Shown: positions 13,723-17,973 of the stretch, piece after piece
Layout of the letters: each line of letters begins with the position of its first letter
How positions within the stretch are numbered: position 1 is the stretch's first letter
Assembly (NCBI GenBank): GCA_019359075.1
Contig: JAHHIB010000008.1
Location: forward strand, 100,793-132,792
Source: Kalymmatonema hyalinum WJT4-NPBG1
GTDB lineage: Bacteria; Cyanobacteriota; Cyanobacteriia; Cyanobacteriales; Nostocaceae
Length of the DNA: 32,000 nt
Direction: 5' to 3'
Notes under the pieces: generated by a model
Seen by the model: only the letters and a program-made list of their open reading frames with translations
Database searches by the model: none
Told to the model about the DNA's origin: nothing
Program-made: the position numbers and the translations under genes

Positions 13723-13944
13723 ATGAAAGCGATTACGACAATTGCTACAGTTACAACAGATGGGAAAATGACAGTGGAGTTGCCATCAGATATTCCACCA
13801 GGTGAGCATCAAGTTGTGGTGGTAATTAATGAAAAGCCTTTGGTAGAAAAACCGGAGACAAAGGAGAAGCGTACACCGCTGAAATTTTCTGCCTATCCTG
13901 TAGGATTAGTTTCGGAAACCGTTACTTTCCGTAGAGAAGACTGA
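13723..13944 (+). CDS. VapB-like (AbrB/SpoVT-type) antitoxin paralog, no cognate toxin behind it
   Basis: 73 aa. MKAITTIATVTTDGKMTVELPSDIPPGEHQVVVVINE aligns residue by residue with the next ORF (MKTIETIATVTADGKITVQLPPDIPAGEHRVVVMIDE). It ends ...FRRED, lacking the MYGDDGR tail of the paralog. Confidence 0.55.
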   Translation: MKAITTIATVTTDGKMTVELPSDIPPGEHQVVVVINEKPLVEKPETKEKRTPLKFSAYPVGLVSETVTFRRED

Positions 13945-14015
13945 TTGCTGAACTACTAAAGAAACAAACTGGTCGTACATAGAATAAAATAGCCCTGATA
14001 AAAACGAGGAATAAT

Positions 14016-14258
14016 ATGAAGACTATTGAAACAATTGCCACCGTTACAGCAGACGGTAAAATCACAGTACAGTTACCACCCGATATTCCAGCAGGTGAGC
14101 ATAGAGTTGTGGTGATGATTGATGAACAGCCTTTACCCAAAAAAACAGAGGCAAAGGAAAAGCGTCTGCCGCTAGATTTTCCTGTGATTCATGTTGGTTC
14201 TTGGCCTGAAAATCTTTCTCTAAGACGTGAGGATATGTATGGTGATGATGGACGATAA
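14016..14258 (+). CDS. VapB-like antitoxin of the adjacent PIN toxin
   Basis: 80 aa, paralogous to 13723-13944. Its 3' end overlaps the PIN ORF (stop TAA 14256-14258; PIN ATG candidates at 14239, 14245 and 14248). This is the classic type II TA layout. Confidence 0.65.
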   Translation: MKTIETIATVTADGKITVQLPPDIPAGEHRVVVMIDEQPLPKKTEAKEKRLPLDFPVIHVGSWPENLSLRREDMYGDDGR

Positions 14259-14691
14259 CTCTGTTTTTCTTGACACTAATATCCTCGTTTATGCCAGTGT
14301 TCCTGAGTCTCCTTTACACTTAGTTGCTATCAACGCAATTCAAACTTATGAACAAGCTGGGACACAATTGTGGATTAGCCGACAAGTGTTGCGGGAATAT
14401 CTGGCAACTCTCACTCGTCCGCAGCTATACACTGAGCCTATACCAATTTTGACTGTAATTGCAGAAATTCATTTTTTCCAAAACCGGTTTCAAGTTGCTG
14501 AAGATGGTTTTCAGGCGACTGAAAGGTTGTTGACGTTGATGGAAGAAATTACTATCGGTGGCAAGCAGGTACATGATGCGAATATTGTTGCCACAATGTA
14601 AGTTTACGGTATCCGTCAGCTATTAACTCATAACACAGGTGATTTTGCTAGATTTTCTGAGTTGATTACTGTTTTGCCTTTACAACAGTAA
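14248..14691 (+). pseudogene. vapC: PIN-domain VapC toxin interrupted by an in-frame TAA (14599-14601)
   Basis: VFLDTNILVYAS (first PIN Asp)...LREYLATLTRP...QVHDANIVATM*VYGIRQLLTHNTGDFARFSELITVLPLQQ*. The same frame continues for 29 codons after the TAA. Those codons encode the conserved 'T.N..DF' segment carrying the last catalytic Asp. Confidence 0.7.
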
Positions 14692-14697
14692 GAAGTA

Positions 14698-14798
14698 GGG
14701 TGTGTTACGGCATACTTGTGAGTAAAGATAGCGGCAATGAAGATTTTGCCGTAACGCACGCCCGATCAATGATGCGTTGCGCTTCGCTATAACGCATC
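14698..14798. repeat. Two GC-rich stem-loops of the 'GTAACGCAC / AACGCATCCTAC' type (cyanobacterial small dispersed repeat-like)
   Basis: GGGTGTGTTACGGCA (14698-14712) pairs with TGCCGTAACGCACGCCC (14747-14763). GATGCGTT (14771-14778) pairs with AACGCATC (14791-14798). Confidence 0.5.
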
Positions 14799-14858
14799 CT
14801 ACAAACTACAAACTGAGATATTGCACCAGTCCCAACAACCGCCATAGGTTAGAAACTT

Positions 14859-14948
14859 ATGGCTAATAGCTAAAGTCTTTTAAAGAAGACTAAATACTCA
14901 TTCAGCAAGGTTTTTAGTCCATTTTAATGGACTTGAGCTATTAGCCAT
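14859..14948. repeat. 90-bp MITE-like element with 19-bp terminal inverted repeats
   Basis: ATGGCTAATAGCTAAAGTC (14859-14877) versus GACTTGAGCTATTAGCCAT (14930-14948): 18/19 complementary. Internal hairpins are GACTAAA/TTTAGTC and GTCCATTttAATGGAC. AACTT occurs on both flanks (14854-14858, 14950-14954). Confidence 0.45.
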
Positions 14949-15078
14949 GAACTTCAGTTCTGGGCGGACGAGAATACGAATTGAGAATCGTGTAATATAT
15001 CAACCTAATGATTTTCCGAAATCTTCCGAGATACAGTGTAGATAGAATCAAAATCAATCTCCACTTCAGGGTTAGTTT

Positions 15079-15519
15079 ATGGAACCTGCAACACTAACAG
15101 CAGCTATGATCGCCACTTTAGCATTTAGCAAAGCTATAGAAAAAACCGCAGAAACCCTGACAGCAACCGTATTAAACAAGTTAAATAATCTCCGCGAGAA
15201 AATTTGGCAGAGGTTCAAGGGTAATCAGAAATTAGAACAGACGCTAGCGAAAGCACAGAAAGAAGGCTCAAAAGAAGATGTTGATTTGATTTCTGCTTAC
15301 TTGCAGGTAGCGATGGATACAGACGATAAATTTGCTCAAGACATTCAACAGCTTGCCGAAGAAATTAACCAAGAAATTAATATTGGCAAGATTGAAGGGC
15401 GGAATGTCCAGAATGTTTATGGTGGTGAAGCTTATCAAAATAATGACAGTAAAGCTCCCATCTTCCAAGGCGTAGATAATAGCCCAATTACTATAAACTA
15501 CAATAATCCGCCTTCTTGA
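15079..15519 (+). CDS. 146-aa helical N-terminal effector-like domain (Bell/HeLo-like candidate) ending at an in-frame TGA; probably the detached N-terminus of the downstream NB-ARC-TPR gene
   Basis: Hydrophobic first helix MEPATLTAAMIATLAFSKAI, then charged helices, then an N/Q/G-rich tail NVQNVYGGEAYQNNDSKAPIFQGVDNSPITINYNN. It is in the same reading frame (frame 1) as ORF 15646-17784. Confidence 0.6.
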   Translation: MEPATLTAAMIATLAFSKAIEKTAETLTATVLNKLNNLREKIWQRFKGNQKLEQTLAKAQKEGSKEDVDLISAYLQVAMDTDDKFAQDIQQLAEEINQEINIGKIEGRNVQNVYGGEAYQNNDSKAPIFQGVDNSPITINYNNPPS

Positions 15520-15645
15520 CTGGAGTCGCTCGAACGGGAACGGGCAAAGTTAAATCCCCCTACTGGAATACCACAAAATATCCCCTCCCATCGGGCAGTA
15601 AAGTTCGTCGGGCGAGAGGAAGAACTACAACGCCTCCATCAACTC

Positions 15646-17784
15646 TTGCAGCAAAATGACCGTGTGGCAATAGCCGCTATTGCTGGTATGGGTGGAGTGG
15701 GGAAAACAGAACTAGCGCTGCAATATGCGATTGCACACCGCGAAAGTTACCAAGGTGGTGTTTGTTGGTTGCTGGCGTTACAAGATGTGGGGTTGCAGAT
15801 TGTGCAATTTGCTCGTATACAACTGCAATTAAATCCACCAGAGGATTTTGATTTACAGGCGCAAGTCGCATACTGCTGGCGAAACTGGCGTGAAGGTGAA
15901 GTGCTGTTAGTGTTAGATAACGTTACCGACTACAAACAAGTCAAGCCTTATCTCGAGACGTCATCGTCTCGGTTTAAAGTGTTGATGACAACGCGTCAAC
16001 GCTTAGGCGCATCAATCGCACAATTGTCCTTAGATGTGCTGCAACCAGAAGCGGCGCTGGAGTTATTACGAACACTCATCGGTGCAGAACGGGTTGATGA
16101 AGAAATTTCACAAGCAACGTCTCTGTGTGAGTGGTTGGGATATTTACCTTTGGGGTTAGAATTAGTCGGGCGGTATTTGGCACGGAAAGAGGATTTGTCC
16201 CTAGAAGAAATGTTGCAGAGGTTGGAGAAAAAGAAACTAGAACAACCTGCTCTTCTTAAGCCCAAGTCTGAGGACGACATGACAGCACAACTGGGTGTGC
16301 AAGCAGCGTTTGAGTTGAGTTGGCAGGAATTAAACAACACCGATAAGCAACTGGCGTGTTTACTGAGTTTATTTGCCCCTGCACCGATACCTTGGCAGTT
16401 GGTAGAACAGTGCTTACCCGATGTAGATGCAGAGGAAATAGAAGAAAGTCGGGATGATAAGCTGCTGAATTTGCATTTGCTACAGCGTAAGGAAAAGGGA
16501 ATTTATCAACTGCATCCACTGTTGCGGGAATTTTTTCAAATGAAGCTGGAAGAGTTAGAGAAAGCAGATGTAATGAAACGCGCTTTTGCCACAGCAGTGA
16601 TAGCAGTTGCCAAGTATATTCCTGAAACCCCTAACCGTGAGGAAATCAAAGCTGTGAGCACTGCTATGCCTCATATGGCAGAGGTAGCAAACAACCTCAC
16701 GACCTATCTCAATGATAAGGATATAATTTCACCTTTCTTGAGTTTGGGTCGATTCTACCAAGGTCAGGGGTTTTATGAACAGGCAGAACCTTGGTATAAG
16801 AAGTGTCTAGAAGTCACTAAAAAGCGCCTGGGGGAGGAACATCGCGATATCGCACCAACTTGGAATAATCTGGCTTATCTCTACAATTCACAAGGACGAT
16901 ACGCAGAAGCTGAACCCCTTTACTTGCAAGCTTTGGAACTGAGGCGATGCTTGCTGGGAGAAGAGCATCCCGATGTCGCTCTAAGTCTTAACAACCTGGC
17001 TTATCTCTACGATTCTCAAGGAAGATACGCAGAAGCTGAACCCCTCTACTTGCAAGCTTTGGAACTAAGACAACGCTTGCTGGGAGAAGAACATCCCGAT
17101 GTCGCCACTAGTCTCAATAACCTGGCAGGACTCTACAATTCACAAGGACGATACGCAGAAGCTGAACCCCTCTACCTCCAAGCATTAAAACTAATCCGAC
17201 GCTTGCTAGGAGAAGAACATCCCCATTTCGCCACTAGTCTCAACAACCTGGCGGCAATCTACAATTCCCAAGGACGATACGCAGAAGCTGAACCCCTCTA
17301 CCTGCAAGCTTTGGAACTGACGCGACGCCTGCTAGGAGAAGAACATCCTCATTTCGCCAGTAAGCTCAACAACCTGGCGGCAATCTACAATTCCCAAGGA
17401 CGATACGCAGAAGCTGAACTCCTATTCCAACAAGCTTTGCAACTAATGCGACGCCTGTTGGGAGAAGAACATCCTCATTTCGCCACTAACCTCAACAACC
17501 TGGCGGGAGTCTACTATGTACAAAGACGGTACAAAGAAGCTGAACCTCTGTTACAACAAGCTTTGCAACTAAGGCGACGCCTGCTAGGAGAAGAACATCC
17601 CGATGTTGCCAGTAACCTCAACAATTTAGCAGGATTATACCAATTCCAAGGACGTTATAGCGAAGCTGAGCCATTGTATAAACAAGCTTTGGAGATTTCT
17701 GAGCGCAGCTTAGGGATAGGTAATCCGTTAACAATAATGATTCGGAGAAATTATGCAAATTGCTTGAGGCGGGGATATCGTTGA
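15646..17784 (+). CDS. NB-ARC (STAND) NTPase with about 8 C-terminal TPR repeats; start uncertain (TTG 15646), likely 5'-truncated by the TGA at 15517
   Basis: Walker [18 protein letters not shown]; Walker B VLLVLDNV; then MTTR and a [10 protein letters not shown] (GxP) motif. The tail holds 42-aa TPR_12-type repeats ([38 protein letters not shown]). There is no in-frame ATG between the upstream stop and the P-loop. Confidence 0.85.
   Translation: [712 protein letters not shown]
16830..17700 (+). repeat. Intragenic 126-bp tandem repeats encoding the TPR units
   Basis: caaggacgatacgcagaagctgaac recurs at 16891, 17143, 17269 and 17395, with a close variant at 17017. The spacing is exactly 126 bp. 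Confidence 0.85.
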
Positions 17785-17890
17785 TGCTTCAATAACCAAA
17801 ATCATACTAGAGAAATGAACTTCTGAGCCTCAACGCCGAAGTTCTAAACTCGGACTTTGTACTTTTGAAGCTGAAGCCCCGAGTTCAGAA

Positions 17891-17973
17891 GCGCAAGTTT
17901 CAAGTTCCAACCACGAAGTTCCGAGTTCCAAACTTGAAGTTTCGAGTTCCAAGCACGAAGTTCCGAGTTCTGA
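17891..17973. repeat. About four tandem copies of a 21-bp unit built from AAGTTCC/GAGTTCC heptamers
   Basis: ccacgaagttccgagttccaa (17911) / acttgaagtttcgagttccaa (17932) / gcacgaagttccgagttctga (17953), plus a degenerate copy at 17891. The 60-aa ORF 17865-18047 is a by-product. Confidence 0.75.

Follow-up and report, generated by a model that had tools for sequence, protein, structure and literature searches.

A conserved UGA-pseudoknot junction between a small Bell-type effector and an NB-ARC/TPR receptor in filamentous cyanobacteria: a candidate for programmed stop-codon readthrough

The window considered here is a stretch of 32,000 nucleotides (nt) from Kalymmatonema hyalinum WJT4-NPBG1 (contig JAHHIB010000008.1), and our subject is a locus near its centre in which a small effector gene and an NB-ARC/TPR protein of the NOD-like receptor (NLR) type share one reading frame, separated by a single UGA and a short conserved RNA element. 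The effector open reading frame (ORF) runs from an ATG at 15079 to a TGA ending at 15519 on the forward strand, as do all features of this locus, and encodes a Bell-type short product of 146 amino acids (aa); it is 100% identical to KME57_05460 from the metagenome-assembled genome (MAG) of Scytonema hyalinum WJT4-NPBG1. Beyond the TGA a post-stop extension of 754 in-frame codons (15520–17784; linker, NB-ARC and TPR) closes at the stop at 17782–17784, and a hypothetical long product spanning 15079–17784 would measure 901 residues. Within this extension NB-ARC occupies post-stop residues 33–241 (15616–16242; Pfam PF00931, E = 1.4e-15), with Walker A (GMGGVGKT) at 15685–15708, and eight TPR repeats at 16681–17703 (TPR_12, E = 5e-127; TPR_10, E = 3.5e-107) form the sensor region. 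The pre-P-loop segment FVGREEEL (15604–15627) lies 5' of every canonical start. A terminator-like hairpin follows the NLR stop at 17837–17859, and no terminator-like site was found between the effector and NLR ORFs. The first-pass annotation of this DNA had read the two ORFs as one gene, present or former, divided by a leaky stop, and its description of the junction was accurate: the ORFs lie in one frame on either side of TGA 15517–15519, the translation is exactly as it was quoted, the stop is followed by C at 15520, the next 42 codons contain no ATG (and no GTG or TTG either), and the first canonical start is the TTG at 15646–15648, 13 codons before the G of Walker A.

The status of this putative recoded stop (UGA then C, 15517–15520) becomes clearer when homologous loci are compared. 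The 146-aa product, searched against 5.8 billion proteins, returned 92 homologs, all of them from filamentous cyanobacteria and ending at the same place, from which 80 genomic loci were fetched. Apart from three fragments (80–134 aa) and one 224-aa Phd fusion, the homologs are stand-alone proteins of 139–155 aa, and a profile search extended the effector family to 621 representatives, mostly of 57–160 aa. The small ORF ends in TGA-C with the downstream body in frame in 64 of the 80 loci, a recurrence far beyond what chance would give, the open frame usually continuing for hundreds of codons. In frame 0 the 42 codons following the TGA are free of stops at every one of these 64 loci; each of the other frames has a stop there in 61. 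All 53 NB-ARC P-loops at TGA-C loci fall in frame 0, and in the nine two-gene relatives with TAG or TAA stops and a P-loop match the P-loop may lie in any frame. The distance from the stop to FVGR takes values of 23, 24, 25, 28, 31 and 40 codons; therefore insertions and deletions have happened here, but only in multiples of three. Several genomes carry paralogous TGA loci (L001, L048 and L050 in Iphinoe; L003, L037 and L042 in Brasilonema CT11; L002 and L015 in Tolypothrix campylonemoides), and the carriers span many genera, in Nostocales as well as in further filamentous groups such as Coleofasciculus, Kastovskya and Microseira, with complete genomes among them. The first-pass annotation had left it between a sense codon, a stop and a two-gene layout at related loci; no sense codon occupies the stop position in any homolog, whether among the genome loci or the metagenome matches described below, and a two-gene layout with an ATG of its own for the NLR is seen in the TAG/TAA relatives. 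One public gene call seemed to provide a sense-codon fusion, P0121 (386 aa; L112, 915–920), in which effector and NLR are joined through a tryptophan ('...KD-W-LNSSER...'). This candidate was rejected, as the DNA has TGA at that position and the gene caller had used a code in which TGA means Trp.

The same comparison disposes of the possibility, also raised by the first-pass annotation, that the stop is a fresh pseudogene lesion, a gene fission caught in the act or a sequencing error. The window does come from a MAG, which could be taken to favour a nonsense mutation of recent date, a fission under way or an error of assembly. An identical layout, however, recurs in 64 genome loci from many genera, complete genomes included, in several paralogues per genome and in 32 metagenome junctions, and purifying selection is seen on both sides of the stop. 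Because stop, frame and paralogues are conserved across loci, we consider all three forms of decay or artefact ruled out for practical purposes, their joint probability being negligible; the sequence comparisons indicate that the lesion is not lineage-restricted and that the constraint on its flanks is not relaxed.

The best-conserved part of the locus is an element of about 45 nt that follows the TGA, with the consensus TGA CTR CAG TCG CCY GAA NGG GAA CGG GYA AAG TTA AAT CCC CC, and it remains so even between loci with unrelated effector tails and downstream bodies. The ratio of nonsynonymous to synonymous differences per site (pN/pS; Nei-Gojobori, 28 gap-free loci) lacks a coding signature over this region: it stands at 1.22, and third positions are the most conserved, which argues that the element is conserved as RNA and not as peptide. 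The element can form an H-type pseudoknot (15528–15558) after a spacer of 8 nt (CUGGAGUC, 15520–15527; consensus CUR CAG UC), whose columns, 13–20 of alignment A2, are mostly 90–100% conserved. In the predicted fold stem 1 (15528–15545) pairs GCUCG (15528–15532) with CGGGC (15541–15545) around the loop AACGGGAA (15533–15540), and stem 2 (15536–15558) pairs GGGA of that loop (15536–15539) with UCCC (15555–15558) across an A-rich L3, AAAGUUAAA (15546–15554).

Covariation supports both helices. Among 62 distinct junctions the predicted pairs form in 91.3% of cells, and compensatory double changes are found in seven of the nine pairs (29 cells), four of five in stem 1 and three of four in stem 2. 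None of 500 shuffled controls reached the observed pairing and covariation, and partners slid out of register pair in 21–55% of cases only. The GCCCG/CGGGC form of stem 1 is replaced by GUCCG/CGGAC, GCCUG/CAGGC, GUCGG/CCGAC, GUCCU/AGGAC and GUCAG/CUGAC, and GGGA/UCCC of stem 2 by CGGA/UCCG (L035, L047) and GAGA/UCUC (L080); stem 2 reads CGGCA/UGCUG at L062 as against CGGUA/UACCG at L068. RNAalifold recovered stem 1 independently. A covariance model built on stem 1 and sequence gave 65 matches in 631 kb searched on both strands, every one of them at the stop of an effector ORF and including the variants TAA-C (L059) and TGA-G (L068), on which it had not been trained. An Rfam E-value scan of 14600–16000 placed no family at the junction.

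The immediate surroundings of the stop vary more freely. The codon before it may be TCT, CCT, GAT, AAC, AAT, TTC or ATT, and the +1 codon after it is mostly CUA, with CUG, CUC, CCA, CCG, AUC and GUG as other choices. Departures from TGA-C with an intact pseudoknot comprise TAA-C in L059 (4385–4450, with 621 in-frame codons), TGA-G in L068 (4412–4477) and TGA-A in L102 and in the second copy of L108. At L098 the sequence reads TGA CTG TAG, and with a second stop two codons on this copy is possibly decaying.

Metagenome contigs were also probed with nothing but the core of the pseudoknot, GGGAACGGRYAAAGTTAAATCC, so that no stop was prescribed. There were 33 matches, of which one is unrelated and 32 carry a TGA at the expected distance: exactly 19 nt upstream of the core in 26 (24 TGA-C and two TGA-A) and 20 nt upstream in six, through a 1-nt insertion in the pseudoknot loop. 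These six insertion junctions represent three sequence types (L084; L091/L107; L090/L099/L111), not necessarily independent lineages, and in all six the upstream ORF and the downstream body share one frame. Two of the types, L084 and L091/L107, can be set against a standard junction, and there the loss of 1 nt just 3' of stem 2 compensates the loop insertion and leaves the linker peptide between them frameshifted to EQGTGKVKSP; in L090/L099/L111 a different type of downstream body follows in a continuous open frame of more than 1000 codons. Because insertion and deletion together keep the frame and shift the linker, it is the RNA and the reading frame that are selected, and not the linker peptide.

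The junction is also modular. Besides the window's effector family, TGA and pseudoknot join at least two further families with an MEP helix, as well as an alpha/beta-hydrolase effector (DUF676/PGAP1-like; L084, L091, L097 and L107) that may be SesB-like. The downstream bodies are similarly diverse, comprising NB-ARC, NACHT (L002), a STAND (signal transduction ATPase with numerous domains) NTPase with an AAA_16/TANC1 lid (L040), other P-loop proteins, and bodies without a family match. Of the last kind, those of L039, L050, L072 and L083 were scanned and matched no Pfam family. In the group made up of L083, L039/L043, L050, L072 and L029/L073, one body of 313 aa contains ..IVHFSGYG.. and looks CHAT-like by eye, and others measure about 125–155 aa; those of L029 and L073, which were not scanned, show a hydrophobic stretch followed by a Ser/Pro/Thr-rich segment. 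Two contigs carry tandem effector-TGA-pseudoknot-NLR units (L081, at 4004 and 9648; L108, at 5186 and 8113), which suggests local arrays of these systems. That the same junction joins different effector families to different bodies could mean that the ~45 nt are conserved mainly as a DNA-level site of recombination or module shuffling, a role that would be compatible with readthrough. Compensatory changes in two helices nevertheless point to selection on an RNA fold and not on sequence identity, and the obligatory stop codon and the maintenance of frame would be left without an explanation; we rate this account as highly improbable.

The small protein itself offers several features of a known effector type. 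An AlphaFold2 (AF2) model places helices at residues 8–16, 18–24, 29–45, 50–62, 65–81 and 83–111, with a predicted local distance difference test (pLDDT) score of 80–90 over residues 30–100; residues 1–104 (15079–15390) form a helical globular domain, and the G/N/Q-rich tail (106–146) is of low confidence and disordered. The hydrophobic helix-1 region at the N-terminus, MEP: MEPATLTAAMIATLAFS (15079–15129), holds the invariant residues of alignment A1, in which the pattern MEPxxLTAxAIATLAF (in the window, MEPATLTAAMIATLAF) is nearly invariant and M1, E2, L6, T7, A8, I11, A12, T13 and L14 are the (nearly) invariant positions. A helix-1 region of this kind, the ~15-aa 'MEPIS' segment, is common to the N-termini of Bell, Hell, Bab and Avast2 and is their main conserved feature, Bell folds otherwise varying widely (Ibarlosa et al., 2024, bioRxiv 10.1101/2024.11.07.622273). 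The effector resembles these proteins in its N-terminus and in being short and alpha-helical. Its C-terminal tail, GRNVQNVYGGEAYQNNDSKAPIFQGVDNSPITINYNNPPS (15391–15516), aligns with the ..MTQINYGGTNYQT..NTNFFGG tails of relatives; residues ~105–146 are read as a putative motif of the amyloid-signalling type, similar to bacterial amyloid signalling sequences (BASS).

The proposal that the domain belongs with Bell and HeLo proteins fared less evenly. The MEP hydrophobic helix, the size, the helicity and the homology to small proteins in canonical paired-motif gene pairs speak for it, but profile searches gave it no support: scans of the 146-aa protein with Pfam, NCBIfam and PADLOC returned noise only, a Pfam scan of 31 family members produced no HeLo, HELL or SesA match, Foldseek of the AF2 model against the Protein Data Bank (PDB) reached a best E-value of 3.5, and a profile search against PDB sequences found nothing relevant. 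With a small domain that matches neither a HeLo, HELL or SesA profile nor a solved fold, a killer function is suggested by analogy; the effector is probably membrane-targeting.

More distant homologs show how the effector is deployed where no recoding signal is present. They belong to canonical two-gene systems with TAG or TAA stops, in which the NLR has an ATG of its own and may lie in any frame. In L055, L065, L051/52 and L058/66 the adjacent NLR carries a repeat of the effector tail at its N-terminus, as seen in MTQINYGGTNYQTRTGAVNTNFFGG (small protein) against MSQINYDGTNYQVNPGENNTNIF (NLR) at L055 and in MTQYNSDNARGWQTKVEGGTAYVG against MIQINQDNAKSFQTLVEGGIAQVG at L051/52. It is by such repetition of a motif on an effector and the adjacent NLR that BASS motif pairs are defined operationally (Dyrka et al., 2020, bioRxiv 10.1101/2020.01.06.895854). 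After their motif these NLRs continue with ..GIPQNLP..G..FVGR, as the window does after its linker, but the post-stop translation of the window contains no motif copy of its own, and NLRs of the TGA clade start with the linker and GIPQNLP..FVGR. As both layouts continue in the same way, the pseudoknot-encoded linker sits where the NLR's own motif would be.

True all-in-one fusions of Bell, motif, NB-ARC and TPR also exist (P0218, 967 aa; P0223, 957 aa), which indicates that this domain order, the one predicted for the long isoform, is viable as a single polypeptide. Having no stop and no pseudoknot-encoded linker, these two proteins cannot also make free effector. Three further cyanobacterial proteins (P0112, P0143 and P0254) have the Bell and motif module joined straight onto a TIR, CHAT+TIR or CHAT-like body. 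These domains were identified by eye, from FFSYSHKDE and IVHFSGHG, and not through profiles; the effector and motif unit has evidently been combined with many partners.

Between the pseudoknot and the first canonical start the locus again evolves as protein. For codons +29 to +42, all of them 5' of the TTG, frame-0 pN/pS is 0.20 and the other two frames give 1.6 and 7.2; for codons +14 to +42 the frame-0 value of 0.36 is the same as that of the NLR body (0.35), and both alternative frames give values above 1. Purifying selection restricted to frame 0 argues that the codons upstream of the TTG are made as protein, yet no start is available between them and the stop: L056 is the only NB-ARC locus with an ATG ahead of FVGR, and roughly half of these loci lack any canonical start in that interval. 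This bears directly on the possibility that two separate proteins are made, with the NLR translated from an internal start, either TTG 15646 or some non-canonical codon 3' of the pseudoknot, and with the pseudoknot serving coupling, pausing, mRNA stability or protein binding. Gene callers do annotate two genes, two-gene layouts are the norm for Bell/NLR pairs, and TTG is the Leu codon found 13 codons before the Walker A glycine in 44 of the 53 NB-ARC loci with TGA and pseudoknot, against a TTG share of 24% among the Leu codons of NLR bodies and mixed Leu codons at the equivalent position in two-gene relatives. Such conservation hints that some NLR is made by internal initiation. An origin of the whole NLR at the TTG is hard to reconcile, however, with the selection on codons 5' of it and with Pfam matches that begin upstream, AAA_16 from post-stop residue 28 (15601) and NB-ARC from residue 33. 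A non-canonical start fits poorly with the loop insertion of L084 and L091/L107, which is compensated before the first plausible one. Neither form would account for a frame kept in 64 of 64 loci despite indels, and both would leave the NLR with no motif with which to signal to its effector. We regard exclusive internal initiation as unlikely; the TTG may instead mark a conserved start for a third, Bell-less NLR isoform, which could coexist with readthrough, or may be part of another RNA signal.

Termination followed by reinitiation is a related proposal, under which the effector would be released at the UGA and a ribosome held by the pseudoknot would restart at the adjacent codon. It draws on the position of the conserved element directly after the stop, and the adjacency would make the shared frame automatic. 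The +1 codons CUA and CCR, on the other hand, differ from AUG at two or three positions, no consistent start-like codon is present, and the NLR would once more lack a signalling motif; we think this very unlikely.

The near-exclusive use of UGA as the stop and the hairpin some 8 nt beyond it also recall dedicated recoding, either as selenocysteine (Sec) directed by a hairpin resembling a selenocysteine insertion sequence (SECIS) or through a lineage-specific UGA suppressor tRNA. L059, with its TAA-C, intact pseudoknot and 621 in-frame codons, does not fit this account, nor does the lack of any homolog with Cys or another sense codon at the stop; the element is a pseudoknot in a non-catalytic linker, and the window contains no tRNA gene (the search for tRNA genes covered the window and not the rest of the carrier genomes). 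For Cyanobacteria, the Sec trait went undetected (2006, PMC1794560). Measured against what marks a selenoprotein, the locus has a UGA that is not strict, no Cys homologs and a lineage without a detected Sec trait, the machinery in these particular genomes not having been searched for. Selenocysteine was rejected on these grounds (trait not detected, the TAA variant, no Cys homologs), and dedicated recoding as a whole has very little probability in our judgement. Three further mechanisms were set aside: stop-hopping, as the take-off codons before the stop are variable and do not match a CUN landing codon; +1 or -1 frameshifting, as both ORFs lie in one frame and there is no slippery site; and A-to-I editing of the UGA, by reasoning only, as its A is not in a TadA-like UACG loop.

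The reading we favour, and consider likely, is that the two ORFs constitute one translational unit that uses pseudoknot-stimulated programmed stop-codon readthrough to feed an amyloid-signalling NLR. It has in its favour an in-frame conserved stop without a conserved start, a coding signature downstream of that stop, a covarying structure about 8 nt 3' of it, paired motifs in the two-gene relatives and the lack of a terminator-like site between the ORFs. The notion of a single unit split by a leaky UGA-C, put forward in the first-pass annotation, is strengthened by the conserved stop and frame, the covarying pseudoknot and the start-less coding signature; the readthrough we infer from sequence evolution. 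Under this reading most ribosomes would terminate at UGA 15517 and release abundant 146-aa effector bearing its motif, and a minority would decode the UGA by a near-cognate tRNA, giving a rare product of ~901 residues in the order effector, motif, linker, NB-ARC and TPR, with a predicted junction peptide of APIFQGVDNSPITINYNNPPS-X-LESLER in which X would be the inserted residue, expected to be Trp, Cys or Arg. Readthrough would be favoured by the weak UGA-C, by the conserved 8-nt spacer and by the pseudoknot at 15528–15558, placed so as to reach the mRNA entry channel when the UGA occupies the A site, and it would supply the NLR-tethered motif that two-gene relatives encode separately on the NLR, where it serves as template for the free effector. 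Ligand-driven oligomerisation of the rare long form might then nucleate an amyloid fold, which would recruit and activate the abundant short form, with damage to the membrane and abortive infection as the outcome. Recoding efficiency would set how much sensor is made per executioner, as for Gag and Gag-Pol.

Several points beyond the conserved TTG weigh against this reading. All of its support comes from comparative sequence analysis. Single-sequence minimum free energy (MFE) folding of 15505–15575 was no better than that of shuffles (z = +1.36), although this value is uninformative for a short pseudoknot because the method does not model pseudoknots. With 5 + 4 bp the stems are short, and the shuffles used for covariation ignore phylogeny. 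Killing by the effector, which has no HeLo, HELL or SesA profile match and no solved-fold match, is suggested by analogy. A literature search turned up no bacterial cellular gene with pseudoknot-stimulated readthrough, and none is known to us; moreover, termination by release factor 2 (RF2) in bacteria differs from the eukaryotic systems in which such signals have been characterised.

The closest known systems are the Bell/BASS-NLR pairs (Dyrka et al., 2020), Bab/Agp of E. coli (Ibarlosa et al., 2024) and fungal HET-S/NWD2, with which the window shares a small helical effector, a hydrophobic helix-1 and a C-terminal G/N/Q-rich motif. As in Bell/BASS-NLR pairs, the effector lies immediately 5' of a collinear, adjacent NB-ARC/TPR protein in filamentous cyanobacteria, and direct homologs of the window's small protein sit in canonical motif-repeating pairs. 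The window differs in that its NLR has neither a start codon nor a motif copy of its own and in that the ORFs are in frame across UGA-C and a pseudoknot. Two architectures have been described, the gene pair and the all-in-one fusion, and the preprint that describes them makes no mention of stop codons, readthrough or frame (Dyrka et al., 2020). Searches of PubMed Central (PMC) and bioRxiv found no prior description of the stop-pseudoknot NLR layout.

Viral recoding provides the nearest mechanistic parallel. In the gag-pol signal of murine leukaemia virus (MuLV) the pseudoknot begins 8 nt after the stop. The in-frame stop, the ~8-nt spacer, the compact H-type pseudoknot and the fixed ratio of short to extended product (here predicted from sequence) are common to both, the viral pseudoknot being described as 3' of the recoding site (Atkins et al., 2016, PMC5009743). 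The present case concerns a bacterial chromosomal gene, with UGA-C and RF2 in place of UAG-G and eRF1, and its stems are much shorter and unrelated in sequence. Within bacterial translation, phage Qbeta coat/A1 provides a leaky UGA with a minor extended protein, and prfB a UGA-C context; the leak at the present locus is a prediction. UGA-C is a poor context for termination by RF2, and Poole et al. reportedly described it as weak in 1995. Readthrough in Qbeta is not known to need a downstream pseudoknot, and prfB relies on +1 frameshifting at a slippery CUU, aided by a Shine-Dalgarno sequence upstream of it. Unlike prfB, the present junction has no slip site, given that the codon before the stop is variable.

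Amyloid-signalling NLRs and pseudoknot-dependent readthrough are each known separately; what would be new is their combination and its bacterial setting. If confirmed, this would be, to our knowledge, the first pseudoknot-dependent programmed readthrough signal in bacterial cellular genes, a class so far tied to eukaryotic viruses, and one that many filamentous cyanobacterial genera have conserved. Amyloid-signalling NLR immunity would gain a third architecture, beside gene pairs and all-in-one fusions, in which one mRNA yields both an executioner and the sensor that seeds it, with a stoichiometry set by the ribosome. Annotation would be affected as well, in that such NLRs are at present called N-terminally truncated or joined by a wrong TGA=Trp code, and screens for motif pairs would score effectors of the readthrough clade as orphans; gene calls like P0121 could in turn be mined for more recoded loci. 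The ~45-nt element, being compact and portable, could also serve to tune two-isoform expression in bacteria.

A bolder version of the readthrough model, which we offer tentatively and think rather improbable, would make the UGA-pseudoknot junction a regulated switch instead of a fixed-ratio device, and a portable connector by which effectors (Bell-type or alpha/beta-hydrolase) are shuffled onto STAND sensors. Readthrough would then rise whenever termination is perturbed, whether by phage takeover of translation, by RF2 limitation or by ionic or temperature stress to which a 5+4-bp pseudoknot of marginal stability would be sensitive, and termination fidelity itself would be a guarded process feeding abortive infection.

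The neighbourhood of the locus holds a few further features. At 13723–14601, adjoining the NLR locus, two paralogous small ORFs (73 and 80 aa) both start with MK.I.TIATVT.DGK.TV.LP.DIP.GEH.VVV.I.E, and an overlapping ORF after them has a weak PIN-domain match (E = 1.5e-4, below the Pfam cut-off); this is probably a toxin-antitoxin module with a duplicated antitoxin. About 125 nt 5' of the effector ATG lies a long, imperfect inverted repeat (14852–14955; 46-nt arms, 78% complementary, 12-nt gap), which yields spurious miRNA-like Rfam matches and may be an element like a miniature inverted-repeat transposable element (MITE) or the terminator of the upstream unit. Directly 3' of the NLR stop and its terminator-like hairpin, a tandem repeat at 17879–17970 has a period of 7/21/42 and about 2–11 copies, and our guess is that it is of the cyanobacterial short tandemly repeated repetitive (STRR) type.

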